64,000 nucleotides of DNA from Bilabrum cf. latius (taxonomy: Eukaryota). Below, one piece after another: positions 23,934 to 58,629 of the stretch. Within the stretch, counting starts at the first letter, position 1. Each line of letters starts with the position of its first letter. Below the pieces are notes generated by a model. It ran no database searches. It was not told the origin of the DNA and saw only the letters and a program-made list of their open reading frames with translations. The stretch is from NCBI GenBank assembly GCA_965178125.1, contig OZ237756.1, forward strand, positions 310,001-374,000, written 5' to 3'. The position numbers were made by a program, and so were the translations under genes.

Positions 23934-26900
23934 TCATTCTTCCTATTTGGCCTCCCCGAGCGTCGGGCTGGGCTGCAGACGGATTCGCTTGCGTAGTAGC
24001 TACGCACCTGCGCTCGCACGCAATGCTAGCAGCTCTGCTGCCGACCTGTGGTGCCAGTCGGCTTTGCGAGAGCATTCGCCCTAATGGTCGTAAATGGGCC
24101 CACCTGTTGATCCTTTGGCCCATGGGAATCCACACAGCCAACAAAAGTGCGTGTGACAGTCCATGCATGTCATGTGGTTGCATCCACTAAACCTCCAGAT
24201 GGGCTTGCTGCAATCTGGATTCGCGCACTGCCGGATATCGAGGTTGTTGGTCTGCCTGGCTTCATCCGTGGCCTTTGATAGTTCTTGGTGGCGCTGCCAC
24301 AGCTCAGCTGTTGTGCATGGTCCGACATGCAGCTTATCACCGAACGATCCGCACTTTAAGCACCAAGAAGCTGCGGGGCAGCCTTTCTTCATGCATCTGC
24401 CCTCATGCGGCTTGATCTACCCATGGGCACGTCCATCTTCACAGCAGGCAAGGGGAGGCAGGATCGAAACGCAGTCGCACCCATCAACGGGGCAGCGAAG
24501 CAGGCGCTGGCAAAACGATTGCACAGCAGTTTGTGCCGCGAGACGCTCCTCGCTATCATCTCGCGATGGTCCCGCGGCGCTTGCATGTGCAGCGCCGAAA
24601 GCACCACCGCTCGGATCCCCACCACCGTCTCCATCACCAATGTCCTGGATCAGACCCAGTGGCAGGTACGCCGTCTTGTCGTTCGTCGCAGCCGCCAGAA
24701 CGCGTGCTGCGCACTGTCCCACCGACGACGGCCCGATGCAGTCTACCAAGACACCCAACGGTATCGGCTTGCCTTGGAATCTACCTTCGAATCCAGGGAC
24801 CTCAACTGCAACCTTCGTTGCTGTGTCGAGTTCTTGAACATGTACCCCTACCTGGTTTGCGAGAACCTTCAGAGCCATGTCATTGAGGCCCGCCCGAGTT
24901 CCAAGAACGGCTGCTGCCGCTGCTCCCGTGCCCTCAGATGCCGATGAGCCCCTTGCAAGGCTGCTCACAAACACGTTCGGAGTGGTGGTCCCATCGCCAA
25001 AGACGATCAGTCGCATATCTTGCTTGCCAACAGATTCATACGATATAGCGCACATCTCCTGATCCGACTCGTCAGCAGACCCACCACTTGTTCCGGCTGC
25101 CTGCGCGGCGGCCTATTTGAGCAACAGCTCAAGGAGGGCCGCACGTGCCCGCTCCACATGCCCTCGGTCCCTATCAGTAAATGCAACGGATAGCGTGCCT
25201 CGATCGCGTATGATCTGAACACGGATCCCACTAACGTCAGGTGCGGCAGCCAAGGCATCAGCCAACGCCAACGCGGCGGGTGCTGCGGGTGCTCCTCCAG
25301 GGCGTTGGCGCGATGTATCCGGATGCCGTTTGGCTTGCCATATGCTCTTCTGACCAAGAACGAATCGAGCAGGATCCCTGTTCTCGATCTGGCTAACGAG
25401 GGCCAGGGGATGCGCTCTCGAGATTGACCTGAGCTGCGCGGCCGCCCGTGCCGGGAGTTCGCCCTCCGTCACGACCGCCCTATACGGATCCGGGGCAGTG
25501 CGCACGGCTTCGATCGCCTCTGCAGTGAACAGCAGCAGGTTATCACGAAGTCCAATCGCTGCCAATCCGCACCTGCGAGCACTCTCCGGCCCTCCCACAC
25601 CTGCGCCCCTTCTCTTATCTTCTACCACAAACACCTTGTGCTTCTTTCCAATTGCCTGAAGCTGTTGGGTCATCGCACCGCCCTGCACCTTCTGTATCAC
25701 CTATTGCATGCGGAGACTACTTGAAGTAGACAGCAACCTCGCAACGTCGATTCCTTCCGTGGCTGATTTGATCCGGGCAGCAACACGGTCTAGGCCCTGA
25801 GCACTCTGGGTGACTGCACACAGCTAGGTTTGCCCGGCCTGGTCGTTGCCCTTGAGCACCAGCGGTGTTCGGAACCAAGCGCTGAAGTGCCCCTATCGTG
25901 CAAGGCCAGGCAGCTAGCGAAATAGGGCAAGTGGTACAGGGTCAGCCTCCCTGTCGCTCTTCAACAGTGTGCATAGCACATAATGGGCGTTGTTTGATGC
26001 CTTAGTGTCCACGTTGCCGGCCAGAAGGTGGAAGGCCTGGGCTCGTAGCTGGCTGCCCGGAAGCATGGATGACAGCTGCAAGTTGCTCGACCTGGCTGAA
26101 AGCACGAGCTAGCCGGCACTAGTGGCATCTCTTAGCATTACTTCAACCGTCGATATCCCGGTGGAATCGTCTGGATGACCCCACTCAGGCTCCCCTACGA
26201 CCCCACCTGCGCTGCTGAGAATGCTCTCAAGCCGGACAAAGTCCATCAGAAGCTCATTGTTCGACTCAAGGTGAGCGCTACCCGTTGATTTGGTCGCTCC
26301 AGCTGCCCCTGCACCGCTTCGTGCTGGCAACTTGTATGCGTTCCGTACGGGTATTTTCGTAGGCTTGGCAGACCTACTCGTAGCAGCACCAACACAGCTA
26401 GACACAAAGTCTTCAAGCTAACGCCGAACATCCGCGTCCGAATACTTGGTATATTTCGCAGGGGGCGTGACTACCATTGTTCGCTTCTGGTGATCACCTT
26501 TGGGAGGCCTGTTCCCAAAGAATGTGAACTTGAATGGGCCAACGATCCTGCTTGGTTGCGCTGCTGAAGGAATGAACCTTGCGGCCACTTCCAGCGAAGT
26601 AAAGTCAACCCTGAACGCGAGCTGCTTGCCCAGCCGCTTTAGTGACGAGATATGCTGAGCTGCGCTACCTGCGCTCTCTGTCGCAGCGGACTGTTGCGGC
26701 CGTTGTGGAACCCCCAATATTCTCTGCAGCGCGACCTCAGCTGCATTGCGGATGATTTCGGGAGGAGCCAGCTCGGACGGATCCTGCACACGCCAAGCCG
26801 GTTTCATAACCACTTGCAGGCCAGTTGTATCCTTCTTGTTGGGGATGACTAAGAACCGATGCTCGCCAACACTGATTTCGAGCAAGCGAAGCAGAGCTCG

Positions 26901-29900
26901 AGCTACGGTTGTACTGCCTAGTTTGATACTGTACAATGGGGCCTTTCCCATCCGTGTAGCCTATACAACGTGCATCGCTGGCGGTAGCACTGTTGCCGGA
27001 GCACGAGCAACTGCATCGATCGAGATTCGCTCACCGTCGTCCATAGTGGCTAGATCCTTGGCAGACTGTGGTACTTCCCCGAAATGTAGCACAAGCTCCA
27101 TCACCAGGTCCATCTCACACGATGCCGCTTGCGGGCACTACGCTCGTATTGCCTGATCAATTGTGGTCGCCATGTCCAACGGGTGCATGGTTCGCGGGAA
27201 CCCCCAGGCATGGACGGCATGCCCGCCAATGTACTCGAACTGTACACTGTAACCTAGATCTATTCCGGATACTGGACGCACTGCCAGGGGCCTGGCAAGT
27301 ATTATTGGAAGCGCGGACAGCGCGTGTACACTCAGTCGAATCGTACATGCGCCATCGTGCGGCTTTCCCAACCACGACAGGAGCACTCTAGTGGAGCTGC
27401 CGGTAGTACTGCCCACAGCAGTTGCACCACCGCTGTCGAGTCCAAGATGCATGGGAGCAATGACGTCAGCGTCAATCGTACTGTTCGCAGGACTTGCGCT
27501 ATCACCCGTGACATCGCCTGCGCTGCCACCTGCGCTTGCACCCACACCTCCTGCCTTGCTGTGGTCAAGCACGAACTGCCTAAAGACTCGAGCTGCAGCA
27601 GGAGACACGGCCGTGAATACTGCCCTGCAGCGAATGCTAAAGGGGCTGTCGAGCTCCCGGTAGGACGGAACCAGGCGTTGCATGACCGGGTCTGTGCTGT
27701 ACATGTCATTGCCGGCACGGAGCGCATATCCAGGCGACCCGGCCGACATGCACCTATCCCTGAATGCCTGCAGCAATGCCATCCAGTCCATGGGTACGAT
27801 CCGCTTCTGGCGATGCACGGCACTAGCATCATTGCTACCATCGGCCGTCTTTGGCGGTTTCGCTACCGATGTCACCAGCACCTGGATATTCTCACACTCC
27901 GCCCCTGCTGCTTCGACGTCAGATTCATTTCGCCCAGCACCGCTGCTGGGACCGGTACCGCGGTCCTCAAAATGACTGTAGCCTCTCGGTGCAGCGATCG
28001 CTCTCAGGACTCTGGCACCGGGCCCTACCAGCAGAGAACCGTCACCTCCGAAATGATCCTGATTTCCGGAGGGAACGACGTCCACGGCGTGCATCTGCAT
28101 GTCGTGGTGGGCGGTCACCTGGGCCTTGAGCCAGGCTGCGCAGGCTGTTTCCCTTCCAGCTGGCACCCACAGCCGCAAGCTCCCAAGCGGAACTGAGCCG
28201 TGGCCACTGGTCCAGGGCGTTTGAAGCAGCGCCTGATGGTCTCCAAGAGGGAGACCGGGATGCATGGTGATACGCTTGATCTGGGTACATTGCGCGCCCA
28301 GCATGCTTCGGTAAGTGGCGGTGTCCATGCCCTCGACCTCGACAGCCGCCATGTCTACACCTGCAGGAAAGTCCTCGGAACGCATGCCGGCCAGTCGTAT
28401 CAAGTCTTCTTTGACCACCCTCGTGAGACTGCACATGATATAGCTGCCGAGATCCTGCACCTGCTCAAATGCAACAATATCGGGCATTGCCTGGCCATCT
28501 ACTGCACGCGAAAGGCACGAGGAATTGTGGATCTGGGCGATTCCGATCCACCGCCCATGCCGCTGCAGGCTATATCCAGCGCGAGCACCACTATTGGAAG
28601 CAGCGAGGTTGTCTTGCAGCGCCCATCCTACGAAGCACGCCACCATGCGCTCTATGGAAAGATCGGCGGAGCCACTGGTAGCTGGATGCTCCACTTCGAA
28701 TGCCACATCCAGCGGCTCGACGCAAAGCTCAATGAGTCTCGCCGCACTGGCTCCGTCTGTATCTCCGTCTACCTCGTCGTCTTCGGGGGTTTTCGATTCG
28801 TCAGCACCGGCCCCGATGGCGGCCTGTGGAGCAGCGGGTCGCAGCGCAGAGATACCTGCTTCACCTAGCGGACGAAGCGTCAGCATGGCAGGCGAGCCGA
28901 ACTCTAGGCTAGAGCACTTGAGCACATCGTCGGCAATCTAGTCCATGCGATCTGGGATTCCCTTGAAGGTGTCAATGACTCGCTCCGCGGCTTCAGAGAA
29001 CAATAGATGCACCAGCTCTGCCTGCAACTCGTTGTATCGCTCCGGTTCGCGTATTTCCTCTGCGGTTCTTGACCCTGAACGAGGGCGTGCTGCAGGTGCA
29101 TCGACTAGCCCAAGGCGCTCCCATGCAGTGTATACCCTCAACAGGGTGATCAAATCGCCCCATGGAGAGGTCGCACCCTGGAGTCGGCTTGTGATGCTGC
29201 GGTACAACGACCCCTGCAGACCTGACTGCAGCAGGGCAACTAGTCTAAGCACAATCTATGAGCCAATGGCAAGCTCTCCCGTGGCTTCTATTGCCTTGAA
29301 CAGCAGCGCTCCGTGCCAGGGCTCCATTCCAGCGGACTGGACTACATGACCTCGAAACGTGGCAGATGACACAGACGCCTGCCCCTTGCGGCCGCCGTCT
29401 TTCTTTGCAAGACCCAGCCCGCAGAGCGTATGTACAGCAGCAAGTTGGTCGTGTACCCTGGGCCTCGTGATCCACTAAAACTCGGAAGTAGATATGCCTG
29501 CGGTGAGTATGCCCAGCGTCATACGGGTGACGTCGCACCGTAGCACCCCAGGCAGGTTCTGTGGCCGCATAACGTCGAACGAGTCCTTAGAGTAGAGCCG
29601 GATGCACTTGCCCGGGCAGGTCCTCCCGGTCCTGCCCTCCCGCTGGATGGCAGCTGCCTGGGAGATGCGCTCGAGGCGGCGCTGCGAGATGCGCAGGTCA
29701 GGATCGTATACCTCCTGCCAGTCGTAGCCGCAGTCAATCACGCAGGACACGCCAGGCACAGTAATTGATGACTCAGCCACCCGTGTAGCAAAGTACACGA
29801 CCGGTGTGCCAGTATTCGACGCACGCATGGATTTCTCCAACGAGCCTGAGTCGAGAACAAGCACCTGCACGGACCTGGTATGGCCGAATTGCTCCTGCAG

Positions 29901-31385
29901 CATGCCGAGCATGGCCTGCTTGCACCTGTACGCAGCACCACGACCAGGCGCAAACGCGAGCACACCTTCGCTAGCCTTCCGCTAGACGAGCCCCATGGCC
30001 TCCCGGAAAGCAACTAGCGCAGTGCACTGCACCAGTGTCTCAATCTGGTCCTTGATTTTTGGCCTCCTGTACCTCCATGTCGGCCGAGCATTTGGCTTGC
30101 CCATTGTGTGAGGCGGTTTCTAGCGCTGTAGGCCACGGGGACCCAGAATAGACAGCCTACTCGCTGACTTTCTCTCCCGGTAGAAATCATCCACCTACCT
30201 TGACACAGCGTCAAGCTACTCAAACTGAGTCTTCGTGTCGTAGCTGAAGCCGTCGATCTGGAAGCGGGATGACCCGGGGAAGAATGCCTCAATCTCGTCG
30301 TGGTCCAGTGTCGCAGATGCCACCAGGAGGGTAGGTCTGTACGTGCACGACGGTGAGCTCCCGCCGCTCTTGCCGGGTGCGCCGTACATGATGCGCTTTA
30401 CCATGCCCAGGAGTGCATCGCACTGCACGCCCCTCTCGTGCACTTCGTCAACCATGATGATTCCGAAGCTCTCTAGCCTCATCATCTGAGCTACCCCTCC
30501 AGCGCTGGCATCAGCAGCGGCACCAGGATCAGGATCTGCGCATGAGCTGCCTCCGCCCTATTGCAGCCAGTTTCCAGCCATGATGAGCGCAGTTGCTTCG
30601 TCCACGAATACGATCGAGTTGCTTCGAGACACCAGAGGCTGGGAACCCGCGATTGCCAAGCCCACGGCCCCGCCGGCCCCCACCTTAGATCCGAGTTCCT
30701 GGGCCACCCTGTAGGCAAGGAGGGCGGCACTTTCCGGCTACGGCTCCGTGACCAGCAGTCTGCATCCATTTTTGGCCTGTGCGAGCCCTCGCTGGGCGAG
30801 CACTTGCGGGAGTTGAGTTGATTTGCCGCTGCCCGGCCTCCCGCTCACGAGCATCACAGGCATAGCTTCTGGCTCCGTCCCCCAGGCTTGCTGCACCCGT
30901 TTAACCGCCTGGTATATGCCATTCTCCTGCGTGAATACCCGTAGGCTTCTAGAAAATGCTCTGACAGCAAGGTCCAGCCGATGGAGCAGTGCTTGCATTA
31001 GCTGCAGCCGGCCGTCCAACGCTGAGTCGGAGGAGGAGGAAACGCCCAGCCCGAGGCGCCTTTTGCGCTCTCGCAGCAGCCTCTCTTCTTCCGACTCGTC
31101 CACATGTACGGTTTTTGCCTTGGCCCAGGCCTCTGCAGCTGCAAGGACGTCGCCCATCATGCGGGCAAACAGGGCATTCGATCTGGTTTGCATCTCTCTC
31201 GTCAGCTGGTTCTTGCGCTTCTGGAGCTGGTCCAGCCGCACGATGTCTTCCCGTGACAGCCCTACGCCGGTACCGTCCCCGGAAATGTCTCTAATTTCCG
31301 TGGAAATATCGCCCATGATCTGCTGCGCTCTGGTGGTCGCTCGATTCAAGTAGTCAGACGCGATCGCGTACACGACCCTGAGGCT
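23934..31385 (-). CDS. 3' part of DEAH-box RNA helicase fused to C-terminal RBR (RING-IBR-RING) ubiquitin ligase; interrupted by provirus
   Basis: A single 7452-nt frame broken only by TAG that ends at TGA 23934. Motifs GRPGSGKSTQLPQ, DEVHER, SAT, ATRVAESSITVPGV, QREGRTGR, IBR (CPAASWCLKC...HVGPC) and RING2 (CANPDC...GCNHMTCMDCHTHFCWLC). Confidence 0.9.
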
Positions 31386-31391
31386 CGAAAG

Positions 31392-32451
31392 GGGGGGACA
31401 ACAGGTGGTGGTAGGTACACCAAGCGTTTAGGACGAGGGCTACGCTACGCTCGCCCCTCCTTTAAAGGCATATTTAGCAACTCAAGTGTTTCCCCTATAA
31501 ACCTAAATGATTTCACAGGGGGTTCCCCAAGAACCCCTATAGAACCCCTCTATGTACCCATTTTCAGATATAAAATTTACTCCTACGAAGTAGGGGTAAA
31601 TTGAAGAATTCTAATATTTAACCCCCTTATAAACTCTAACAGCAAAGACAGAGATGTTTTAGTAAAGTAGGAAAAAATGAAGAAATTAACCAAGTGTCCA
31701 AAATATCTCTGTGTTTGCTGTAGGAACGGAAGGATGAATTCCCAAGAGACCAAGAGACCAACCGAGGATTTCCCCAAGAGAACAAGGTATTTTATCAAGA
31801 GACCGAGGTATGTTCCCAAGCGACAAACCGATAAACCGACCGATGAACCGACCGATGAACCGACCAAGGATTTCCCAAGGATTTCCCAAGGATTTCCCAA
31901 GGATTTCCCAAGGATTTCCCAAGGATTTCCCAAGCGACTAAATTGTTCTCCGAAGCAACCAAACCGATTACCCAAGAGATGATACATTATAAGGAAAACG
32001 AAAACGTATTTTAAGTCCCTTTGGAAAAGTCCCCCAAGATGCTCGGGCTTTGCCCTCCGCTCTTTTGATATCTTTTTCAAAGATTAAAATTGAGAGATTT
32101 TACAGGTCAATTTTAAGAGACTTAGAAAGAATAAATATATTTTCCAATTAAAATTAAATGTTGTAATTCCTATGATGCCACCATAAAAATTAAAAGGAAA
32201 ACGAAAACGTATTTTAAGTCCCTTTCGAAAAGTCCCCAAAAAACTTGTCAATTTTACAGGTCAATTATAAGAGACTTAGAAAAAATAAATTAAGTTCCCA
32301 AGATGCTCGGGCTTTGCCCTCCGCTCTTTTGATATCTTTTTCAAAGATTAAAATTAAATGTTGTAATTCCTATGATGCCACCATAAAAATTAAAAGGAAA
32401 ATAAAAAACAAATTATAATTGTTTTCCAATTAAAAACACAAAAATTGATTG
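31392..32451 (+). repeat. left terminal inverted repeat (about 1060 bp)
   Basis: Reverse complement of 56293-57116. It contains 6 copies of GGATTTCCCAA (31868-31933) and an internally duplicated block. Confidence 0.93.
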
Positions 32452-32466: not shown

Positions 32467-32505
32467 TCGTACCTTAAGCATAACTTACGTAGTCTATAGT
32501 ACAAC
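32467..32505 (+). promoter_or_regulatory. conserved upstream motif TCGTACCTTAAG-N9-CGTA(G/T)TCTATA (copy 1 of 3)
   Basis: The same motif occurs at 33885 and 35599, each directly upstream of an ATG. Confidence 0.75.
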
Positions 32506-32512
32506 CACATAA

Positions 32513-32752
32513 ATGGCAAAATCACAAAAGGAACTCGAGAATTACATCTTGGCGACCAAAGAATGTCTTAAATCAGTCCCGTTTATTACAACACGAGAAG
32601 CATACGATATGGCCAAAAAGTACCTTGAATTTACAAAGACTATTATTTGGATTAATTATGATGATGACGATGACCTGCTTGCTGACTTTGAGGAAGCTAA
32701 AGATTTAAGTCAAATTGTAGTTGAATGGCACGAAAGTACCAAAACCAAATGA
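32513..32752 (+). CDS. virophage hypothetical protein, 79 aa
   Basis: ATG-to-TGA ORF preceded by the conserved promoter motif. Confidence 0.7.
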   Translation: MAKSQKELENYILATKECLKSVPFITTREAYDMAKKYLEFTKTIIWINYDDDDDLLADFEEAKDLSQIVVEWHESTKTK

Positions 32753-33873: not shown

Positions 33874-33930
33874 GATGCCCCGTATCGTACCTTAAGGATT
33901 ATTTTCGTATTCTATAGTACAACAACAAAA

Positions 33931-35592
33931 ATGTCATTCACTCTGCCGACTAAAGCGTATTCGTCAAAAAGCCTTATGGACCTATGTAATGCCGGAAAAC
34001 AAGAGGAATGTATTCAATACCTTAAACAATACTTCTACCGCACCCACGAACAAGGTGGCGGGGTGTATTTTCTAATAGCATCTGAATTAAATCGGAATAA
34101 CATAAGTGATGACGAACCCCAGAAACCAGTCTGGTAGTTCCTTACGAATAAAAATATTACTGAAAATTACCTGATTGGGGGACACTGTATTTACGCGATT
34201 GTGGGCAACAAAAGAGTAAAGACTTGGTCAGCACGAGACTGGTTCTTAAATGAGAATACCGACGTATTTACGATTGTAAGAAAATTCAATTCACCTACCG
34301 TTGATTACGACAATCAAACAATTAACGTTATGGGTTCACCTATACTTACACGGGAAAACTGTGGAAACATAGAGGATTTAACCGAAGACGCAAAAGCAGG
34401 CGCGACTATGATTTACGAACATATCCAGAAGGTGTGGACTTCAGAAGACAAAGAATAGTGTGATTTTGTGATGAAGTGGTTGGCTCACGTTATTGTGGGC
34501 GGAAAGAAGTTGGGTACAGCACTATATTTGAAATCTCCACAAGGAACTGGTAAATCGATGATTATTACCTTCCTTATGAGAAAACTACTCGGATATACCC
34601 TCACACTATAGACGCTTACACACAAGATGCTTCAACCCGACGCCTTCAACTCAATTCTGGACGGGAAACTATTAGTCAATTTTAATGAAATTCCAAAAGC
34701 CTCGCCAACTATTTGGGACGCCATGTAGGCAACACTAAGAAATCTTATTACGGAAAAACACTTTTCCTGTAATGAGAAGTTTGTCAAATCCGAAAGTCGT
34801 CCGAATACATTCAATTTAATTATTGATACGAATGATAGTCCAATCAAAATCACCGAGGAAATCCGTAGATATTGTGTTTTGGATGTGAATACATCTAAGA
34901 AAGGAGACAAAGAATACTTTACAACACTAAAACGTTTTACAGAAAATCCAGAAGTGGCTAAGGCATTTTATATGTTATTGGTTGAAATCTATGATACATC
35001 ACCAGACTTTACAGGACAATTCGCACCAAAATCAAAGAATTTTTACAAAGGAATTCTTGATGGCGCACATCCGGTTTTAAAAATTCTAAAAGAAGAGTGG
35101 CTGGACGAAGGCAGAGATTTTAAAATGACAGTCTTGGAATTCCGCAATTATCTAAAGCAGGAACTGAACGGTAGAGTGAAGAACCTTGGTACACCTATGA
35201 TTAAAACACTATTGTCAGAGGTAGGTGTTCATTCAACGATGAACAAATAGAGAAAACAAGAATTTAATGTGAAACACGCAGACTTACTAAAAGGCTTCCA
35301 ATCTAAATTTTAGGCACTTCGTCATTCTGCTGAGATGGAAAAAGCAAAATCCGAGGTAGATGTTCTTCGAGAGTAGATTAGAGAACTACAGAAACAAGTC
35401 GCATAGCAGTAGGAAACGATTGAATAGTTGGAATTAGAAAAGGAGATTACACCGACGGAACAAGTCCATAAGAAAATCCAGAAACAGCTGAGTGTTGAGA
35501 ATAGCATCGCTATTCAAAAATGGATAAAAGAGAACCCACCAAAGAACAAAAAAGGAAAACTTTCCAAATTCCTCTGTAAAATTGAGAAGTGA
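33931..35592 (+). CDS. D5-like superfamily 3 helicase, 553 aa
   Basis: One frame through TAGs to TGA 35590. Walker A LYLKSPQGTGKS, FNSILDGKLLVNFNE, NLIIDTN, RRYCVLD and a C-terminal coiled coil. Confidence 0.85.
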
Positions 35593-35649
35593 GTGAGTTC
35601 GTACCTTAAGAATAATTATCGTATTCTATAATATAATAGATACTATAGA

Positions 35650-42190: not shown

Positions 42191-42295
42191 TTTTGTTTTC
42201 CTTGTATATTATATACAACGAATAAAATTCTATCACTCAGTTCTTTAGAAAAGAACGCAAACTCGTTTCTTCATAAAAGTAATACAAAACTAATT

Positions 42296-46154: not shown

Positions 46155-46238
46155 TGAACTCTGCTGCGAATCAATGAGTGCTCCTTCTACATGCCCAATG
46201 GCCAAATCACGGACCCGCTCCCACAGTTGGGGCAGTTC

Positions 46239-46241
<3 letters not shown>
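46155..46241. repeat. Ngaro repeat B2 (87 bp)
   Basis: Matches 46979-47065. Confidence 0.95.

Positions 46242-46304
<63 letters not shown>
46242..46304 (+). repeat. 63-nt poly(A) tract between A2 and B2
   Basis: Homopolymer seen directly. Confidence 0.95.
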
Positions 46305-46305
<1 letters not shown>

Positions 46306-46348
46306 AGGACGTCCCTGCGCCCGTCCCGCGCCCTCTCCCCCCCACGAG

Positions 46349-47065
46349 GGACAGTCCGCCCCGAATCGACTGGTTCTCCTCAGTCGCGTCTCGCGCATGC
46401 TATACCACACTCGCCACAAATGTACACGCTACCCCAATCCTTGCATCGTCTGCGCCTCCAGGCTCGCTCCGATGCCTCCCCTTCTAGTCCTGCCCCATTC
46501 TGATCTGCTGTCTCCCTACGCACCCGTACGTCTCAGCCTTCGCCAGAAATCCTACTGCCTTGTGGTCTGGCCCCACTCGGCTGCCTCCGCTGCCCCTCCC
46601 TCCCCATGGGCCTCCACGCTCCCGAGCCCTACTGGCTTGCTCGGGCCTGTCCGTGCCCCTTCGTCGTCCCCGCCACGCGTCTGGTTAACCGCGCTCGGGG
46701 CATCCCGATCCTCCCCTTTCCTCCGTTCATCTTGGAATCCCCCTCTCCGTCGCCTCCCCCGGTGCCACCCGACCCCTTGGTGGGCCGCCGCCCGTCCACC
46801 CTGTCACCTCCGCCAAGCTCCCCCGTCTGCTCCTGTCCCCCTCTCACCTGGCCCCCTCGCTGTCACCTCCCGCCGTTGTTGTCCTCCACCTGCACGTGCG
46901 CTGCTGCTGTACCCTCCCCGTCGGAGCCCCCATCGCTGTCTCACAGCCCTCAATCCCAATGTCTGATGACACAGATAATGAACTCTGCTGCGAATCAATG
47001 AGTGCTCCTTCTACATGCCCAATGGCCAAATCACGGACCCGCTCCCACAGTTGGGGCAGTTCCAT
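46349..47065. repeat. Ngaro repeats A2 (46349-46978, 630 bp) + B1 (46979-47065)
   Basis: A2 matches 54084-54713 and B1 matches 46155-46241. The junction GATAA|TGAAC equals the joined element ends. Confidence 0.95.
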
Positions 47066-48228
47066 TACTTTCCAATACTTGCAGCAGTTGCAGCGTGGTC
47101 CAGCGCTGCCGTCCACACCCGTGTCGGCTGAGTGAGGTCAACCGAGGAGGGGAGTGGCAGGGGCCGAAGCGCGAAGATGTTCTCGTTCCGGTAGCGGCGG
47201 GCTGCCACCAGAGTCTTCCAGGCACCCGCGCGCATGATGGTGTCGTCCGAGCAGCCCTGCCTACTCAGTGTGGTGATGGCCGTCACGCGCAGGGAGTGGC
47301 CCGACAGGTGCAACTGGGGCCGACCGCAGCACCGGCGAAACTCCGCGATCACTGTAGCCGCCCCGCATCGGGCTGGTGCGAACAGGTACGCTGGTCCAGT
47401 CGATGGGCGGTGCTCGAGGAATCGGCGTAGAGCCGCCACCGATGCGATGCCATGTGCGGCGCGCAGGTACTCCAGCAAGATGCGGACACCGCAAAAGCGG
47501 GCGCCGTGGGGCTGGCCACCGACGTACCGCACCGGACGGACGCTGCTCAGCATCAGGGAGCGCGTGTCCCGCGACTTGTTGGGTCCCAGCAGGATCTCGA
47601 TGGAGCTGACGGCACCGTCCGAGTCCACGCCCACCACCAGGTGGCCCCGTGCCATCCCGCGCTGCTCGTCACCCACAGTCGCCTGGGCGATTTCGCCCAG
47701 ACGTGCGGCGCTGAAGAAGGCTACAGCCGCTGCCGTGCGAGCCGCGTGCTCCTAGGGTCCCCGTGGCCGTGCGGTGAACCACACAGCGAGCCGATGCAGG
47801 TCAGCCGGGTGCTTGCGCCCAGAGGCGGCCTTGGAGGCCACCGGGCCGCCCGGTGCCGCTGCCCTGGCCATGTGGGTGGCGAAGTACGACAGCAACGAGC
47901 GCAGACGCTTGGACTGGCCACCCGGCAGGCCGTGCAAGATCACGAACGCCCTGAACACGGTGCTGACGTATGAGCGCAGAGTCGGTCCACCGATCGTGCC
48001 CGTGCGGTCCTCGCCGCGCCACACCGCGTACCTGCAGCACGCGATGTCGAGCGCCCGTTGCGCCCTCAGTGGGTCCTCGTAGCCTGCACACGGGTCCTCG
48101 GCTTCCCCGCGGTCCCGACGGAATTGTTCGAATCCACGGAGGGCTGTAGCCCCTGAAGCCAGACCTTTAGCGCCACCGCCCGAGAGCGCCCGAACCGTTG
48201 CATACACGTCCAGATCCACGGCGGACAC
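47065..48228 (-). CDS. tyrosine recombinase (Ngaro ORF3); start uncertain
   Basis: Catalytic pattern AFFSAARLGE (R), NKSRD (K), SGHSLR (HxxR) and GAWKT...RRY (W,Y). One TAG is read through at 47752; TAA stop. Confidence 0.88.
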
Positions 48229-51200
48229 CGCGCCCGCTCCACCGTCTCGCCCCAGCGGAGGTAATGGCGAGGCGAGAAGTTCCGAGAGAGAGCGTCCGCC
48301 ACGAAGTTGGCCTTGCTGCTCACGTGCTGCGAGAAGAGCTGGAAGTCATGGCGTGTCACGGTAGTGAACAACGGCCCCAACAGTCTGTTGAGGCACAGGC
48401 GGCGTGCAGAGCCCTTGCGAAGAGAAGTACACACAGGCAGATTGTCCCCGTACACGGTCACGTTCCTGCCCGCGAGCTCCGGTGCCCACCGCTGCACGAG
48501 GAGCACCACGGCCGCCAACTCGGCTTGCGGCATCTGACTGGGGCCCACAGTGCGTGGCCAGAATCCCTGGACGAGGCGCCGGCCGCGATGACTATCGCCC
48601 GGAGTGCCGTACAGCTGCAGTGTCCCCCCGAACCCTTCCTTGCTGGCGTCCACGTACATCACTGCCCGAGGTCCCCGATGTGGGGACGTGGGGAACCGGC
48701 GTGAGCGGTTGGCCTGCACGCTGGCACGCAGGGTCCTGAGTGTGTCGAGGATCGGCCGGTCCAGCTGGTGAGGGCCCCCCCGCAGCGGCATGCGGTGCTG
48801 GGCACACTGCAGGAGCCCGAGCTGGGGCTTCAGGCACACCAATGCCCCCGCTGCAAACCCCAACTCTCCGATGACGGACTTGAACTCCAACGACGTGGAC
48901 ACCGCCCCGGCCTCGATGATGGATGTCAAGCGCTTCACCAGAGCCTCCTACTTGGCCTGCGGCAGGGCGATCCGCAGTGCGGCGAGGTCCAGCTCGTACC
49001 CGAGGTAGGTGAGCACGGAGCGGGGATGTTCCCCACGCGCCTTGGACCGTGAGATGGGGAAGCCCAGGTACTCAGCCTCGGACATGAGCTGAGCCGTCAT
49101 CCATGGGGCCCGGGGTGCGGCAGCGAGAAGCAGCTGGTCGTCGCTGAAGACGGTGGTTGCACACGGCGCGCGCGGGAGGGCGAAGCTGCAACGCTCACGG
49201 AATCTGCGGTTGAAGGCGGTGCTGGTTAGACAGGCCCACCCCGGCGAGGACGCCGAGCCCATGCTGAGGACAGCGTAGAGAGCTGCCCGGTCCCCCGTCT
49301 TGGACCACATGTGACACGCGTCCGCCAGCCGAAGCTTGAGCGAGAAGAACCACTTGGAGAAGTCAATGGCGGCACCATGCATCGCCACCCCTGCTGGAAG
49401 CTAGCGGTGGAACTTCACGGCCTCCTTCATGACCACGGTGATGTCGTCGAGCAAGCACGGCGTGTACTGCCGGTAGTCCACAAAGCCATTCACGCCCTTC
49501 CCCGTGGTGGAGCTCTCGCGGGCGGACGCGTCCACGATGGCGCGATACTGCCCTGCGGCCTTCTTGGCGATGTAGCTGGTGAACGAGATGCGAGATGGCG
49601 GCACCTCGTGCTCGGCCAGTGGCACGATCCAGCCGGCACGGACAGCGGCACCGTGCGCCAGCTCAGCATGAGTGCGCGTGGCAGCGTCTGAGTAGCGTGT
49701 CTGCTCCACCGCCGCGTCCCGTGGACTGCCCGCGCCGGGGTCAGTGCAGAGTGGGAAGCCGTAGCGGATGCCGGCCACGGCCGCCTCATACAGAGACAGC
49801 GCCTGCCAAGCCGCCGGTCCCCGAGGTTCCGTCGGGGGACAGCGCACGCCGAAGAAGGACTCCAACCGGCGCAGACGAGCGCCCGTGCAGCGGTGGCCCC
49901 GGACAGAGCCGCGGGCGATGGCCACGTCAGCCATCGGGTCGAGGAGCAGTCGGTGTCTGGCGAACTCAGCAGCCGGAGCTGAGGACACGCGGCGCAGCGG
50001 CGCGGAGGTGAAGTCGGCCAAGCGGGTGGAGGGGATGTCCTCGGCCGTCCTGGCTGTGGGAAGCGGCGGCTCCGCAGCAGCGGCGGCAGCCATGCGGTGC
50101 AGCACTCGAGGCAGCGTGGAGCGTTGCCACGTTGCCCGGTCGCGACGTGCACGGTCCTGCACAGCAGGGTCCAGCAGAGAGGGCACCGGCTTCAAGCGGC
50201 GGGAGGAGCTAGCGATCGTCGCGGAGAGGCCGGCTGCCGTCAGGTGTGCCTGGGATGAGGCAGGACCCGTCCTGGTGATGGCTAAGTCCGAGGCGAGATC
50301 CGACCGTGCTGTCTGCCCGACCGCGCGTCCCTGCCAGGGCGCCACGCGAGCCCCACCAGCATGGCTGACACCGCCCGCCATGATCTCCTGCCTGCTCTCG
50401 ACTCCGCCACCACGGCTGACACCGTCCTCCACGATCTCCTGCCTGCTCTCGACTCCACCACGGCTGACACCGCCCTCCACGATCTCCTGCCTGCTCTCGA
50501 CTCCTCCACCACGGCTGACCCCGCTCTCCACGATCTCCTGCCTGCTCTCGACTCCTCCACCACGGCTGACCCCGCTCTCCACGATCTCCTGCCTGCTCTC
50601 GACTCCTCCACCACGGCTGACACCGCCCTCCACGATCTCCTGCCTGCTCTCGACTCCTCCACCACGGCTGACACCGTCCTCCACGATCTCCTGCCTGCTC
50701 TCGACACCTCCACCACGGCTGACACCGTCCTCCACGATCTCCTGCCTGCTCTCGACTCCTCCACCACGGCTGACACCGCTCGCCACGATCGCCTGCCTGC
50801 TCTCGACTCCTCCACCACGGCTGACCCCGCCCTCCACGATCTCCTGCCTGCTCTCGACTCCTCCACCACGGCTGACACCGTCCTCCACGATCCCCTGCCT
50901 GCTCTCGACTCCTCCACCACGGCTGACACCGTCCTGCACGATCTCCTGCCTGCTCTCGACTCCTCCACCACGGCTGACACCGCCCTCCACGATCGCCGGC
51001 CTGCTCGCGACTCCTCCACCACGGCTGACACCGTCCTCCACGATCGCCTGCCTGCTCTCGACGCCGCCAGTGCCGCTGATATGGTCCGCCCCGACCGCAT
51101 CACGTGCACCCCTGCGGTTCGCCGCGGAGTTGGTGGCGGCAAGTGCACGATGGCCGGCCCGGTGGGCCCGTGACCATAACGTCGGCAATTTCCAAGATGA

Positions 51201-52094
51201 CCAGAAGCGCCCCCTGGCTTGGGGCGCCGTTGCATTGCGTGGCGGTCTGTACGACCGCCCCCGCACCTCAGCCCCTCCGTGCCGAGGTCTACAGATCTGC
51301 CCGGTGGGCAGACTGGGTCCCTCCTTCCCTCCCGCCCCATCCTCCGTTGGGGCACGAGTGAGCTTCGCCTCTCCAGTGAGGCTAGCTGCCGCAAATTGCA
51401 ACGAGGCACCCGAGGGCACCTGCTGCGCGGGAGTCGATCCTGTCACTCCCCAAGCCGCGTCCTGCAGTGCAGCATCCTCCCCGTGCTGCCCGCCGAGCCC
51501 CCAGCCCCCCGCTGTGGCCCTCCCATTCCACGTGACCGGTGCTGCCGGCCACCACGTCGATCCAAATGTCAAACTGCCCCCCCAGCCCCAGGTCTGTCCC
51601 CACGGACCCTGCCCAGGCCATCCCCCCCATCGCCAGCACCCACCGGCGCCATCCCCCGCAGGGGCTGCACCCCCCCACGGTGCACCCCACGGAGATGGCC
51701 AGCCGCGACCCCACCGGCGCGCGGCTGCACCCAGGACGGGGAGACGGCCACATGGCCGCCACCCCGCCGCCCGTGCATCCCGCGTGCGCCCTGCCACCCG
51801 CTCCACCGGCGCCCCGTCAGCGCACCCCATCATCTCGCCGTCCGCCGCCCCCCCGGCGGCCCTCCGCACCTCGCTGCCCGCCCGCACCACCACCGCTGCC
51901 GCCGGTCCCGCCGCCACCCCGGCGTCCATCCCCCCCGCCCCTGCCGCCCGCGACGCCCGCGCCCTCACCGCCACCTCCCCGGCCGCCGCCGCCACCCGGC
52001 GGATGCCAGCGCCCGTCCTACGCCGGCATCGCCTCTGGTGGCGACGGCGGAGGCCGTGCCGAGCGTGAACACCCAGCGCGGCCCCCTTGGCTAG
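48066..52094 (-). CDS. reverse transcriptase + RNase H (Ngaro ORF2) with long N-terminal repeat region
   Basis: Frame open through TAGs at 49401 and 48948. RT motifs YRAIVDAS, IDFSKWF, LSMGSASSP, FSDD and YLGYELD; RNase H motifs YVDAS, QAELAA, GDN and NFVADALSR. Confidence 0.88.
50361..51069 (-). repeat. 51-bp coding tandem repeat, about 14 copies, in Ngaro ORF2
   Basis: Encodes GGGVESRQEIVEDGVSR variants; one unit is 3 nt shorter, which keeps the frame. Confidence 0.95.
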
Positions 52095-54077
52095 TCAGTC
52101 ACCGAAGATGGACCGCCAGTCGCGATCCACATTGGGGGTGCCGTCGGCGCGGCGCCGCGACGTGTCCGGTTCCGCATCGATGTCGGCCACTCGCTGCATG
52201 CACTCGACCAGCAGTCCAGGGACACCGTTCACGGTGTCGAAGGGGGCCAGGAGCCGGGTCAGATCGGCGTGAGGCAGCGGAGAGGTGGCCGGGTCACGCC
52301 ACCAGCGGCTGCCCGCTGCCCACGCCGCGCAGCTGCGGAGGCGATCACCCGCGCGCAGCACGTTCTAGCCGGGGGTGAGCTCGGAGCCCGCCGCGGTGTC
52401 ATACACCCAGCACATCACCTGCTCCGGGACCGAGGTGGCCTGCCGGAGGGGAGTGGTGGTCCCCACCGTCGCGACCATCCTTGCCATGGAGCTCGAGCGG
52501 GCCCACAGGTCACCCACCGTGCCCAGCTCCGGCGTGGCCAGGTCACGGCTGCGAGGGGCGCCTGGCTGCGAGGCGTGCCCGATGAGCGTGCGCCGCATGG
52601 CCAGGGCTTGGCACGACCGATGCACCCAGATGCCCTGCACGACTGCTGCCAGCTTGCCCGAGCCGCTGCCTGCCCCCGCCCGGAGCAGCCCGATGGTGGC
52701 GTACGGTTCACGCCGCTGCAGGGCGGACCCCAGGGCTGTCACCGCGGTGACGAAGGAGGCCAGGGCTGCCTTGCCCGCAGATGGGGCCTTCAGGGCGCGC
52801 TCGCCGGCCTTGCCACCACACACCGCGTCCACCATGGCAGCCAGGACGTCAGCGAACTAGGCAGGGCAGCGCAGGGGCTCCAGCGTGAGCAGCCTGAGGT
52901 CGTGCTCCAGAGCCGCACGAAGGAAAGTGCGGACCCCCTCGCGCACGAGGCGGCTGTCTGGGGGCGGCGCGGCCCCCGTGGCGTCGATCAGTGCGGCCGT
53001 CGTGTGAGCCAGCGAGGTGCCTGTGGGGGAGCTAGAGGGTTCAGGGACGGAGCCAGCCGTGACCGTGTACGTGGGGGGACAAGCGTCGGTTGCAACCGTC
53101 TCACCGGGGGGTTGGGCCGCCGTGGGCCGGGGGAACGCCGCCGCCTCGCCCATAGCGACGAGGAGCGGTAAGACGGAGCCGCCCTCCAGCGGGCGCTTGC
53201 GGTACAGGTCAGTGGCCTGCTGAGCCAGCTCCTGGATGGCGTCGCGTGGGGCCATAGCTGCCAGCATGTGGAACAGACCGAGCGGGGCTGCGGGGCCGGC
53301 GGAGTACTTCAAGCCGCGCAGAATGACCTCAGCCCAGAGTGCCGGGACTCCGGTCTACAGGCGAGTCTGGAGCCGGCGGGCCGCCTCGGCGAACTCGGCA
53401 CGATGGACGTCAGGTAGCGGCGGCAGGGGCCCACTCAGGGCGGGCAGCGAGCCCACATCGATGACCAGCAGGAAATCACCCATCAGCGCCGCGGCGTTGG
53501 CCAGCACGGAACGAGCGGGCCCGCGCCCAAGTGCATGCCCCGCCGACTTGCCCAGAGCCACAGCCTCATCGTCATCCGCTTGGCCCAGCGGGATCCCATC
53601 CAAAGAGCCGGCGTCCGCGTCCGGCACGGCGTCCGCCTTGGGCAGCTGAATGTCCTCACAGATAGAGTCGAGGCGCGTGGACAGCAGCGGAAAATTTGCA
53701 TGCGTCACGGTCAGGAATGAAGTAACGTAGTCCCGAATCTCCGTCTGCAGGGCTTCGAATTCCGCGGACCCCAGGCTTTCGGGATCGATGGAGGCCAGCG
53801 CGATGGTCATGTCGCCAAGTCGGCGCGTCGCCCAGCGGTCATCCCAGAGGCAACGAGGCTCCGCGTCCCCAGACGATTTACTCGAGCGAGCAGCAGTCGA
53901 ATCAGCTGGAGCAGCTGCGTCTGGCACTGCGGTTTGCAGCCACTTCACTGTCAACGGACCGGACAAGTCTTGCAACGGGGCCAGGATTAGCCGAAATGCC
54001 TCACCAGCCCGCCCTGTGCGGAGTGCAACCTGTACAGGGGCAACATATTCAGCCATTCCCGTAGCTGCAGAAGACAT
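52095..54077 (-). CDS. Ngaro ORF1 (gag-position protein), 660 aa
   Basis: Four track ORFs in one frame joined by TAG; ATG directly after repeat A1; TGA at 52095. Confidence 0.75.
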
Positions 54078-54083
54078 AGCTGC

Positions 54084-54713
54084 GGACAGTCCGCCCCGAA
54101 TCGACTGGTTCTCCTCAGTCGCGTCTCGCGCATGCTATACCACACTCGCCACAAATGTACACGCTACCCCAATCCTTGCATCGTCTGCGCCTCCAGGCTC
54201 GCTCCGATGCCTCCCCTTCTAGTCCTGCCCCATTCTGATCTGCTGTCTCCCTACGCACCCGTACGTCTCAGCCTTCGCCAGAAATCCTACTGCCTTGTGG
54301 TCTGGCCCCACTCGGCTGCCTCCGCTGCCCCTCCCTCCCCATGGGCCTCCACGCTCCCGAGCCCTACTGGCTTGCTCGGGCCTGTCCGTGCCCCTTCGTC
54401 GTCCCCGCCACGCGTCTGGTTAACCGCGCTCGGGGCATCCCGATCCTCCCCTTTCCTCCGTTCATCTTGGAATCCCCCTCTCCGTCGCCTCCCCCGGTGC
54501 CACCCGACCCCTTGGTGGGCCGCCGCCCGTCCACCCTGTCACCTCCGCCAAGCTCCCCCGTCTGCTCCTGTCCCCCTCTCACCTGGCCCCCTCGCTGTCA
54601 CCTCCCGCCGTTGTTGTCCTCCACCTGCACGTGCGCTGCTGCTGTACCCTCCCCGTCGGAGCCCCCATCGCTGTCTCACAGCCCTCAATCCCAATGTCTG
54701 ATGACACAGATAA
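54084..54713. repeat. Ngaro repeat A1 (630 bp)
   Basis: Direct repeat of 46349-46978; both give identical 189-aa translations in the ORF track. Confidence 0.95.
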
Positions 54714-54994
54714 GTAATCTCTTTATGTTTCTTTTCCTATGCTTTTTCATACAAGTATTTGATGTCTTCGTCTAGGGGTTCGACCTGTTTGATTAAGTGT
54801 CGTGCTAATAAATCCATTTTCCTCTGCGGAAATCGTTTCCCTGTAAGTGATGATACTTGAAAATCCTAAAATGACATACTATCATCTCCAAATTGGTTGT
54901 CTGTGTTTTCCGCCGTGTATAAAATACGTTTTCCGTGAGTGTCATATGCGATGGGTGTTGATTTTGTAGTTTCCTTCCAAGAAAAATGAGCCAT
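54714..54994 (-). CDS. packaging ATPase, 5' part
   Basis: MAHFSWKETTKSTPIAY...KHKEIT joins in frame to LK[Q]GEFQSLP at 46154 when the Ngaro is removed (903 nt, 300 aa). Confidence 0.88.
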
Positions 54995-55183
54995 TTTAGT
55001 GTATTTACTATATGTTTTTATTTTTTCTAAAGTGTTTTGTCTTTTTGTTGAAAACTTATTTTGAATGATTGTCTTTTATGCTATCCACAAATTCCAAAAC
55101 GGATTTTGTAGAAATACTTCTACGCTTAAATAGTGGTTAAGAGAATTCATCTCCCCCAATATATGTTTCTATAATAAATATAT

Positions 55184-55999: not shown

Positions 56000-56030
56000 A
56001 AGTACTTTATAGTATAGTCTTCTACTTATA

Positions 56031-56144
56031 TCAAAGCCCGAGCTTCTTGTATTCCTTTAGTTTTTCGTGTAATTTTTTCCAAATACGTGGATTAATTTGC
56101 TTGACAATATGCTCTATCATCAACTCCTTTAAAAATGGGTTCAT
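56031..56144 (-). CDS. 37-aa ORF
   Basis: MNPFLKELMIEHIVKQINPRIWKKLHEKLKEYKKLGL, preceded by the viral CTATAGTAAATG motif. Confidence 0.5.
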   Translation of the reverse strand: MNPFLKELMIEHIVKQINPRIWKKLHEKLKEYKKLGL

Positions 56145-56292
56145 TTACTATAGTGATATAGAATGGTCTTAATTATCATCTCTTGGGAAATCCAATCTTT
56201 GAAAAAGATATCAAAAGAGCGGAGGGCAAAGCCCGAGCATCTTGGAAAATTAATTTTAATATTTCTTTGTATCCTATATTGTCAAAATTTTT

Positions 56293-57116
56293 CAATCAAT
56301 TTTTGTGTTTTTAATTGGAAAACAATTATAATTTGTTTTTTATTTTCCTTTTAATTTTTATGGTGGCATCATAGGAATTACAACATTTAATTTTAATCTT
56401 TGAAAAAGATATCAAAAGAGCGGAGGGCAAAGCCCGAGCATCTTGGGAACTTAATTTATTTTTTCTAAGTCTCTTATAATTGACCTGTAAAATCTCTCAA
56501 TTTTTGGGGGACTTTTCCAAAGGGACTTAAAATACGTTTTCGTTTTCCTTATAATGTATCATCTCTTGGGTAATCGGTTTGGTTGCTTCGGAGAACAATT
56601 TAGTCGCTTGGGAAATCCTTGGGAAATCCTTGGGAAATCCTTGGTCGGTTCATCGGTCGGTTCATCGGTCGGTTTATCGGTTTGTCGCTTGGGAACATAC
56701 CTCGGTCTCTTGATAAAATACCTTGTTCTCTTGGGGAAATCCTCGGTTGGTCTCTTGGTCTCTTGGGAATTCATCCTTCCGTTCCTACAGCAAACACAGA
56801 GATATTTTGGACACTTGGTTAATTTCTTCATTTTTTCCTACTTTACTAAAACATCTCTGTCTTTGCTGTTAGAGTTTATAAGGGGGTTAAATATTAGAAT
56901 TCTTCAATTTACCCCTACTTCGTAGGAGTAAATTTTATATCTGAAAATGGGTACATAGAGGGGTTCTATAGGGGTTCTTGGGGAACCCCCTGTGAAATCA
57001 TTTAGGTTTATAGGGGAAACACTTGAGTTGCTAAATATGCCTTTAAAGGAGGGGCGAGCGTAGCGTAGCCCTCGTCCTAAACGCTTGGTGTACCTACCAC
57101 CACCTGTTGTCCCCCC
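56293..57116 (-). repeat. right terminal inverted repeat (about 824 bp)
   Basis: Reverse complement of the left TIR, with 3 rather than 6 copies of the 11-mer and without the extra ~200-bp block. Confidence 0.93.
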
Positions 57117-58629
57117 CGAAAGCGAACCTGGTGGGGTCTCCACCGGGACAGCATCCGCCCCGATGTCCATGCTGCTCTCTGGATCGAATCCAGCACCACT
57201 CGATGGTCCGTCACTAGTAGCACGGGAGCCGGGGCCACTGGAGGCTTCCGCAAGCAGGCGAACGTGCTCTTCTTCGAAGTAACCTGCGTTCCGCTGAATG
57301 TGCCCGGCGGCGGCGAAAGAGCCCTATGCCGCCGGGGTTGTCTGCTTGACAGAAGCGATGGCTTCGTGGCACCAAAAAGATATTGTAGATCCAGCTGCTG
57401 CAACCGATCCCGCCGCGGTGGCGTTGGCATCGTCGGCCGATCTAGATCCGCCGAGTGGCGCTGCCTGCGCGATGCCCGCCTTCTCACGCAGAGCTGCAGA
57501 TAGCAGCTCCTCTGGCCGGCCAGTTGGCTTCATTGCCATGCTACTCAGCATCTCCGCGAGGTCCGCAGGCAGCGGGTCATCCGATACTGCGCCTGGAGCA
57601 ATAGTGGAGTATCCGATGTTGTAGTATGGTGGGCCGCTGCCAGGCTCACCGATCAGCCGGATGCTCAGCCGATGACCGTACCTCTCGGTCCTCTGCAAAG
57701 CACGGTATCTTCCGCTGAGGGAATGCTTGCATGAAATCACTTCGACGTATAGTCCGCTGTCTAGCGCGTCTTGCACGAGGCGGGGGAATTGGAATACCGT
57801 GTCCTGGCTGAATCCCGATGTGTTGCCGTCACCTGTACGTACGAGGGGTAAATAATCGAAGAATGCGGATATTTACGATTCGATCTACAATTATCAATTC
57901 GAAAACGTGAGTGGATGTAGAGTGTAAACGGTACAGTGTCAACTAAGAGCTCACCAGTGCACAGCACGAGAACGAATCTGTGCTTCTCCTGCGCGTTCGC
58001 CCCAGACTCTATTTCTTTCTACACGATTGCATGCTACTTAAGCAATTCTCTCATTCCAACCTTGGCGAAGTCCCGAACTTTCAAATCGACTGTCTGTTCG
58101 CCTGATCCTGGCCTGCGAAGCTCGATTGCCACCTCGGGCCTGCAGTCGAGACTTCTGAACGCGGCTTCATCCGCACGTTTGTCATCCACGCTAGTCCGAG
58201 ACCCAAAAATACCAATCATATTTTTACCGTTGGAGTCCGCAATGATACGACGCTGTCGCATGACAGAGTGTATGAACGCCTAGATGTCGACCGTGTGTCC
58301 GGCAGTCTTTGCCGGAAGCCAAACGTTCGACCAATCGACTGCGACTGCAATAGTCTGCAACGTATCGTCATATGCATTGCCAGTTGATATGGCCCTTTTC
58401 AGTGTTGCTGCCATCATGCTGCGGTTGCCAAGCAGGTCAGTTGTGATCCAGCTAGCTTTGTTGGACAAATGGATAACACGAGAGGTAAGGTGTGTTTTGC
58501 AGCCCTGGCCAATCCATTGAGTGCCCCGACTCTTGTACTACGTCTGGTACGATACATGCGGCGAAACAAAACCGAGGTCTGAGCACGCACCACAAAAACC
58601 ATAAAGTCAGGCGCACAATCACCCATCAT
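57117..58629 (-). CDS. 5' part of the DEAH helicase-RBR gene (two predicted 44-nt introns: 58579-58622, 57833-57876)
   Basis: ...ETPPGSLS joins in frame to SLRVVYAIASDY at 31385 after removing the provirus and one TSD copy. The GT-AG introns reconcile the frames. Confidence 0.8.

Follow-up and report, generated by a model that had tools for sequence, protein, structure and literature searches.

The window analyzed here, a 64-kb stretch of one Bilabrum cf. latius contig (OZ237756.1, C22 in our numbering), comes from an assembly of 48.6 Mb in 111 contigs, of which C111 is probably organellar. An endogenous virophage lies in the window inside a host gene for a protein with a DEAH-type helicase and a C-terminal IBR/RING2 region, and the virophage in turn carries a Ngaro-type retrotransposon (Table 1). 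The GC content fell from about 58% to 32-43% across 31.4-57.1 kb, with an island of 67-74% inside this region at 46-54.7 kb. The low-GC block of 25,725 bp was bounded by terminal inverted repeats (TIRs), 511 nt of which were 100% complementary, and was flanked on each side by the hexamer CGAAAG.

Excision of 31392-57116, proposed in the earlier note on this DNA, was reproduced on the minus strand as quoted: the reconstructed empty site is in frame and yields a single frame of 2,722 codons from the start of exon 2 to a TGA at 23934-36. That note also removed one CGAAAG copy. Both hexamers are present, but the duplication is probably 5 bp (GAAAG or CGAAA), with element termini of G6-8. An exact 5-bp duplication was compatible with all 14 copies examined (from 17 TIR pairs), and a 6-bp duplication, which was rejected, with only 3 of the 14; the same empty site results under each duplication reading. 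Misassembly that joined a repeat into the gene is exceedingly unlikely: multicopy TIRs are known to trouble assembly, according to the available text of PMC8547959, but the exact duplication, the canonical termini and an in-frame empty site matching the paralogs speak against it, and the right junction is also present in run X3.

The two halves of the gene were said to contain neither frameshifts nor TAA/TGA. This holds for the left half, with its in-frame TAG codons, only if UAG is a sense codon. The right half contains TAA, TAA and TGA in frame at 57875-57896 together with a shift of frame, all of which are resolved by a GT-AG intron (57954-57833). The spliced model from ATG 58417 encodes 2,876 amino acids (aa), with the insertion after residue 393 and the P-loop at 575. 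A start at 58629 was rejected, as the simplest spliced model begins at ATG 58417, and the previously stated length of about 2958 aa could not be reproduced.

Four paralogs at 40-52% identity were detected in the assembly, three of them clustered on contig C9. In three of the four, a single open frame (2,516-3,089 aa) spans the 5' section of exon 2 as well as the helicase, and these three also have a homologous exon 1 and an intron at the same position (89-116 nt); paralog C23 had no match to the N-terminal domain. Since the two halves are joined in a single frame in three paralogs, which also have the intron, this comparison indicates that the interrupted gene is real. The earlier note had asked whether any homolog contains both halves; three do, and its view that a provirus interrupts the coding exon of a gene for a DEAH helicase-RBR protein is supported. 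The intron, the NYN-like N-terminal domain described below, the four paralogs, the Ngaro element, the 16 sister TIR pairs and the published frequency of exon insertions are additions to that note.

In the window protein, helicase motifs I, II, III and VI (GxxGSGKS, DEVH, SAT and QREGRTGR) are intact and accompanied by Helicase_C. The C-terminal IBR matched PF01485 (1e-8), and a RING2/Rcat GCNH motif, whose cysteine we take to be catalytic, is present by inspection; paralog C9a has two IBR stretches. The best database matches include "DEAH11-like" helicases with IBR from Arabidopsis and Gigantopelta. Like the DEAH11/DEAH12-type fusions of plants, molluscs, nematodes and protists, the protein combines a DEAH helicase, a long middle and a C-terminal IBR/RING2. 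Compared by database matches, it differs from DEAH11/12-like proteins (1,560-2,120 aa) in its greater length and in an N-terminal domain resembling NYN RNases. The accessory Pfam domains of plant DEAH11/12 (PF24471 and others) were not detected in the window protein, the N-terminal domain was found in none of the 120 listed helicase homologs, and literature searches for an architecture of NYN-like, DEAH and IBR/RING2 parts gave nothing relevant.

A structure model was made from a four-sequence alignment of exon 1, which holds part of the N-terminal domain (predicted local distance difference test, pLDDT, 78.9). Among 48,161 chains compared with VIA-align, its best matches were 2qip (Z 8.6, root-mean-square deviation 3.9, 107 aligned residues) and the MARF1 NYN domain 5yaa (Z 7.0, 3.1, 98 aligned), all others reaching at most Z 5.9. 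Three Asp residues are conserved (DWSN, VD and GDG motifs), while the fourth acidic position is Asn: all four copies have GDGN, versus GDGD in the genome's own Pfam-positive NYN protein. The domain thus resembles the NYN/LabA-DUF88 PIN-fold RNases (VPA0982, 2qip; MARF1) in its top two structural matches and its Asp residues, and differs from them in the GDGN motif and in giving no sequence-level match; relatives of exon 1 numbered 0 among 1.84 billion representative sequences, and none was found among PDB sequences. The Pfam-positive NYN protein, a separate and unrelated one with GDGDF (C7:609961-611772), was the sole locus from the genome search with Pfam NYN. The modeled domain is probably an NYN-like RNase fold. 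The intact protein would most likely couple RNA unwinding and cleavage to ubiquitylation of bound proteins, in RNA surveillance, judging from its domains.

The element contains the rve integrase, primase-helicase and pPolB module of Maviroviridae/EMALE. The capsid protein matched that of Sputnik V20 with 104 bits versus 37 for 6g45, which we take to be mavirus; since its capsid is nearer Sputnik, the element, which appears to work like an EMALE, is not placed in Maviroviridae. The probable protease had no Pfam or NCBIfam match and only chance WD40-repeat matches in the PDB; homologs were found both in the genome (four other elements) and in metagenomes (four loci). The packaging ATPase gave only generic AAA matches, and in metagenomic relatives its homologs lie next to capsid genes. 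A conserved motif that includes TCTATA occurs upstream of the integrase, helicase, polymerase and capsid genes (32467-32518, 33885-33936 and 35599-35650; inverted at 42183-42213), and presumably resembles the late promoters of giant viruses. A search of the assembly for capsids of nucleocytoplasmic large DNA viruses gave no matches, with the control likewise silent. Virophages (Maveriviricetes) are defined by capsid, packaging ATPase and cysteine protease, with a penton and a double-stranded DNA genome of 15-45 kb expected (Roux et al., 2023, PMC9952930); the element has a virophage-like capsid, a penton and a size in this range.

Compared with the EMALEs of Cafeteria burkhardae as described in the accessible text of PMC8547959, the element is alike in its low GC content, TIRs, integrase, primase-helicase, pPolB, major capsid protein and penton, in a P-loop ATPase and a probable protease, and likewise in duplications of 3-5 bp, frequent exon insertions and a nested GC-rich Ngaro with split direct repeats. 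It differs in having about 13 open reading frames (ORFs) instead of 17-21, in the loss of the mavirus gene order and in needing UAG as sense in all genes. Its capsid is nearer Sputnik, and its host, with an eRF1 67% identical, is a different organism from C. burkhardae.

The Ngaro element is about 8.6 kb long and has the hallmark split direct repeats in the order A-(ORFs)-B-A-B (A at 46349-46978 and 54084-54713, B at 46155-46241 and 46979-47065), the copies being identical. Its ORFs matched PF00589 (9e-7) above the cut-off, and PF00078 (5e-4) and PF17917 (3e-3) below it; a 51-nt tandem array lies in frame in the reverse transcriptase ORF (50300-51211). The insertion splits the viral ATPase gene, each piece of which matches intact metagenomic homologs. 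Near-identical A repeats were absent from the other 16 TIR pairs, so that Ngaro most likely entered the ATPase gene after the virophage had integrated. Elements of C. burkhardae that carry Ngaro are not necessarily inactive, as stated in the portion of PMC10945749 available.

Matches to the TIR at 97-100% numbered 36 in the assembly, making up 17 pairs and 2 singles, and 12 sister copies measured 16.5-17.5 kb. The capsid region (4,491 bp) was 100% identical to that of 2 of the 14 other copies compared and the Ngaro repeats were identical, which bears out the claim of a very recent insertion. One element that retains both TIRs measures 3.6 kb (C41:392335-395968) and is probably a non-autonomous derivative; others are longer, at 23-44 kb, and lie on C11, C16 and C22. 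In run X3, TIR depth was about 50-60 times the flank depth, against the 36 matches; depth is not copy number, and further insertions may exist. TIR junctions beyond the loci examined here were seen in runs X1 and X6. Two copies, at C4:1242362 and C12:297152, lie 1 bp apart and in opposite orientation in two copies of a viral element that is AT-rich and uses TAG, where a hot spot may exist.

Frames of at least 600 aa were cut by 4 of the 11 host-flanked copies (this gene, a Patched-like gene, a HisKA-like gene and a retrotransposon ORF), and long frames of host genes by 3 of the 11. In Cafeteria, 15 of 29 EMALE sites were in host genes and 13 in exons, and most duplications measured 3-5 bp (Hackl et al., 2021, PMC8547959). 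With 13 of 29 exon sites there and 3 of 11 host-flanked copies here, insertion into an exon is ordinary, not special. That an antiviral gene was knocked out by targeting or under selection is very unlikely in our view; in such a reading the NYN-DEAH-RBR protein would restrict virophage or giant-virus RNA, and cells losing it would be favored. The family is expanded, with the cluster of three copies on C9 and the paralog divergence noted above, the two insertions separated by 1 bp in duplicates of an AT-rich target suggest some site preference, and a single protein that combines RNase, RNA helicase and E3 ligase parts resembles enzymes of RNA silencing and antiviral defense. Yet only one of five paralogs was struck, other copies lie in unrelated genes, exon insertions are usual in the published Cafeteria data cited above, and the literature search on this architecture gave nothing relevant.

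The left half of the gene was present in five runs from two studies, none of them recorded as RNA. Four of seven listed runs were compared over 56700-64000, and the host flank was covered by X3 only, not by X1, X6 or X7. In X3, a single contig extended without differences from inside the TIR (57089) to 60037 and thus spans the right junction; no loose end of an empty allele was among those listed, with 10 loose ends and 46 pieces outside the listing. A heterozygous or subclonal insertion, in which an intact allele persists and is missing from the assembly, is somewhat unlikely. Putative heterozygosity of EMALE insertions is mentioned for Cafeteria in the accessible text of Hackl et al. (PMC8547959), and Logan contigs lose rare variants, an empty allele possibly lying among the ends and pieces just counted. 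Against it, each host flank matches once in the assembly, and by graph reasoning a common empty allele should fork the graph, yet the X3 contig is unbroken from TIR to flank. The X3 data lean against the earlier suggestion that only one allele carries the insertion, although they do not settle it.

The genetic code of the host was examined in 18 frames (4 host, 11 viral and 3 Ngaro), all of which contained in-frame TAG and ended in TAA or TGA. A single tRNA gene with a CTA anticodon was found (C23:907606-907680; locus L065, 1485-1559, minus strand), one of four pattern matches, labeled "Pyl(cta)" by ARAGORN and with no close DNA paralog found. Presumably it is a tRNA-Gln, which it resembles, and the Gln identity rests on this. 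Opposite TAG in capsid copies, Gln was the commonest residue (74/168; 27 of 28 matches used, one fragment dropped), the copies being related. TAG is used as a sense codon, and the host would translate UAG as Gln, with UAA and UGA as stops.

The eRF1 gene itself (C35; locus L067, about 1405-1900) contains two in-frame TAG codons. The first stands at a position that is Gln in all 104 homologs in which the motif was found (13 of 117 were not parsed), and the second encodes residue 69, which is Leu in 109 of 117 homologs. The protein also has TAVNIKS in place of TASNIKS and YMCDSHF in place of the usual NK/NR, with GTS intact. Its TAG codons may provide feedback on its own synthesis. The best single-domain match was to Cafeteria eRF1, at the identity given above, with Bicosoecida sp. 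close behind and three longer multi-domain records ranking higher; in a quick tree the host joined Cafeteria and Bicosoecida (SH-aLRT support 84) on a long branch. The 1,700-nt 18S of the host resembles, we believe, that of Cafeteria. These comparisons suggest that the host is probably a bicosoecid. A second eukaryotic 18S (1,802 nt) lies on a small contig (C95:6099-7900) and possibly belongs to another organism.

Nuclear codes in which only UAG is read as Gln have been described for Iotanema spirale, Protocruzia tuzeti and two phyllopharyngean ciliate lineages, in the available portions of PMC5304391 and PMC11687900, and the L69A change in eRF1 of the rhizarian exLh has been linked to UAG read-through (Panek et al., PMC5304391). 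The host appears similar to these in its UAA/UGA stops, its predicted CUA tRNA and an eRF1 position 69 that is not Leu, as in exLh. Unlike Iotanema, whose eRF1 has T32G, it has GTS intact, its residue 69 is itself encoded by TAG and it is probably a bicosoecid stramenopile. A literature search, with most subscription papers and supplements outside its scope, found no UAG reassignment in bicosoecids and no recoded virophages.

Taken together, it is very probable that a young multicopy virophage was inserted in exon 2 of one of five paralogs, with UAG read as Gln by both host and virus. One member of this virophage family would have been inserted by its own rve integrase, at a site showing no evident sequence preference and with a 5-bp duplication, parting the RNase-like domain from the helicase. 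The reading of a transcript from the host promoter would end 70 codons into the TIR, at aa 464, and the full-length protein would be lost from this allele, which is probably null; the loss is probably tolerated, since paralogs remain. Ngaro would have entered the viral ATPase gene later, most likely after integration, and both host and virus would be translated with UAG as Gln through the CUA-anticodon tRNA. The intact state of the two halves can be explained by recent age instead of selection: about 170 substitutions (2%) are needed for a 95% chance of a stop in them.

A split gene with changed function, instead of a null, was also considered, with an NYN-only RNase of 464 aa and/or a helicase-RBR protein started inside the TIR, and is distinctly unlikely. 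The insertion lies in the linker after the NYN-like domain (aa ~393, with the P-loop at 575), the 3' part retains all helicase motifs and an early Met, and paralog C23 suggests that a form lacking the N-terminal domain may work. The recent age of the insertion accounts, however, for the intact halves just described.

For the reading of a young virophage insertion that most likely nulls the gene, several points count on the other side. The intron, start, truncation and lost expression are predictions from the DNA. The X3 contig, from a run that is possibly the assembly's own source, has 28-29 letters on the TIR side versus 31 for bridging, and concerns the right junction only. No RING match for RING1 (the E2-binding part) appeared in Pfam at E<=1, with a partial Cys motif seen by eye. 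One paralog is without the IBR/RING2 motif and another without GCNH, so redundancy would be only partial. The NYN assignment comes from a partial, four-sequence model with middling Z scores (8.6 and 7.0); Foldseek with the exon 1 model gave no match at E<=0.001, and Pfam NYN (PF01936) reached only E 0.12 on one paralog, with none on the window protein. Opposite TAG in the divergent host paralogs, Gln leads just narrowly (16/112).

The coordinates of all features, including the neighboring host genes, are given in Table 1.

Table 1. Features of the window (positions in the 64-kb stretch)
Feature	Position	Strand	Remarks
LRR/ephrin-like host gene	1-2964	+	
Subtilase host gene	about 4390-6235	-	
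Ankyrin-TPR-DnaJ host gene	6867-12467	-	
WW protein, 2,800 aa	13055-21445	+	60-nt tandem repeats
Ctr copper transporter	21551-22480	+	
Host gene, exon 2 after insertion	23934-31391	-	DEAH-type helicase, weak OB fold, long middle, IBR/RING2; 22 in-frame TAG; TGA stop
Left target-site duplication	31386-31391		CGAAAG, probably 5 bp of it
Endogenous virophage	31392-57116		25,725 bp with Ngaro, ~17.2 kb without
Left TIR region	31392-32451		G-run terminus, 11- and 12-nt tandem units
rve integrase + chromodomain, 382 aa	32725-33873	+	PF00665 1.7e-9, PF00385 6.7e-6
D5/SF3-like primase-helicase, 553 aa	33931-35592	+	PF19263 3.3e-15; TIGR01613 2.6e-6
pPolB	35650-37491	+	PF03175 1.3e-5, just below cut-off
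Three conserved viral ORFs of unknown function, 213, 418 and 205 aa	37807-40368	-	last with weak P-loop match
Major capsid protein, 588 aa	40424-42190	-	14 TAG; PF22031 2e-27, PF21915 2e-22; Sputnik 3j26 5e-29, 6g45 1.6e-8
Penton (minor capsid protein), 369 aa	42296-43405	-	13 TAG; PF21507 1e-10
Two viral ORFs of unknown function, 163 and 393 aa	43462-45200	-	
Packaging ATPase, C-terminal piece	45533-46154	-	AAA-type matches; 68-69% to C-terminal part of intact metagenomic ATPases
Ngaro-type tyrosine-recombinase retrotransposon	46155-54713	-	GC ~68%; Gag-like, reverse transcriptase/RNase H and tyrosine recombinase ORFs
Packaging ATPase, N-terminal piece	54714-54994	-	41-43% to N-termini of same metagenomic ATPases
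Cysteine protease (probable), 178 aa	55184-55720	+	His and Cys motifs by eye
Right TIR region	56194-57116		
Right target-site duplication	57117-57122		CGAAAG, probably 5 bp of it
Host gene, exon 2 before insertion	57123-57832	-	end of NYN-like domain, low-complexity linker
Host gene, intron, 122 nt	57833-57954	-	GT-AG, at LCTG/DGN; position common to three paralogs
Host gene, exon 1, from ATG 58417 (inferred start)	57955-58417	-	first two thirds of NYN/PIN-type RNase fold; DWSN, VD, LCTG motifs
BNR protein	58648-59874	-	
Alpha-L-fucosidase	60128-61786	-	
Mis12	62393-63448	-	

In-frame TAG was present in all 11 viral genes counted, and 100 of 243 viral Gln codons (41%) were TAG versus 57 of 388 in host genes, a higher share that is due in part to low GC content. 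TAG was more frequent in structural genes (80/169) than in replication genes (20/74; p 0.003); its enrichment as a timing control was set aside, the metagenomic relatives being inconsistent. Seven such relatives, at 56-65% capsid identity, were recovered from metagenome contigs, versus 0 loci from each of two IMG/VR scans, in which records nearest to the element itself may be missing; six of the seven had TAG in the aligned stretches, and three of them were near-identical. Five capsids in the genome contained no TAG and ended in TAA. Around three of these, 22 of 23 low-GC ORFs of at least 150 aa were free of TAG, and a relative of the TAG-free virophages at 75% capsid identity had TAG in 8 of 11 ORFs. 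Given such TAG-free capsid neighborhoods beside the TAG-rich family, recoded and code-neutral virophages, as judged by their codon use, coexist in one genome. These other virophage groups lie on C1, C9, C21, C36, C37 and C40, together with one of middle GC content at about 60% identity with 1-7 TAG.

On recoding, Paez-Espino et al. reported only an ochre tRNA in one clade. The endogenous viruses of Streblomastix strix use the code of their host (Bellas et al., 2023, PMC10120064, in the part available). The present element is similar to these in being an integrated DNA virus with the stop-to-Gln code of its host, and differs from that Metamonada-group element, whose host reads both TAA and TAG as Gln, in being a virophage, in using UAG only and in sharing its genome with TAG-free virophages.

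The knockout is a clean, ordinary case of virophage insertional mutagenesis, and the unusual part is the code common to host and virophage. Reassignment of UAG only is known from few nuclear genomes, and none was found among bicosoecids in the literature search. We lean modestly towards a wider interpretation, in which an undescribed bicosoecid lineage reading only UAG as Gln hosts a clade of code-adopting virophages that would be untranslatable in standard-code hosts, beside TAG-free virophages and a TAG-using close relative of them. The genome would then document how virophages adapted stepwise to the code, and how the code sets a host barrier, in a system of host, virophage and giant virus, with residue 69 of eRF1 itself encoded by UAG; the interrupted gene would represent a new family of NYN-DEAH-RBR proteins with a possible role in RNA defense. 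The in-frame UAG in all viral genes counted would tie viral host range to the host code and predicts that a helper giant virus cannot use UAG as a stop. Gene callers that assume the standard code may detect too few recoded virophages. The natural knockout would offer a handle on an uncharacterized RNase-helicase-ligase family.

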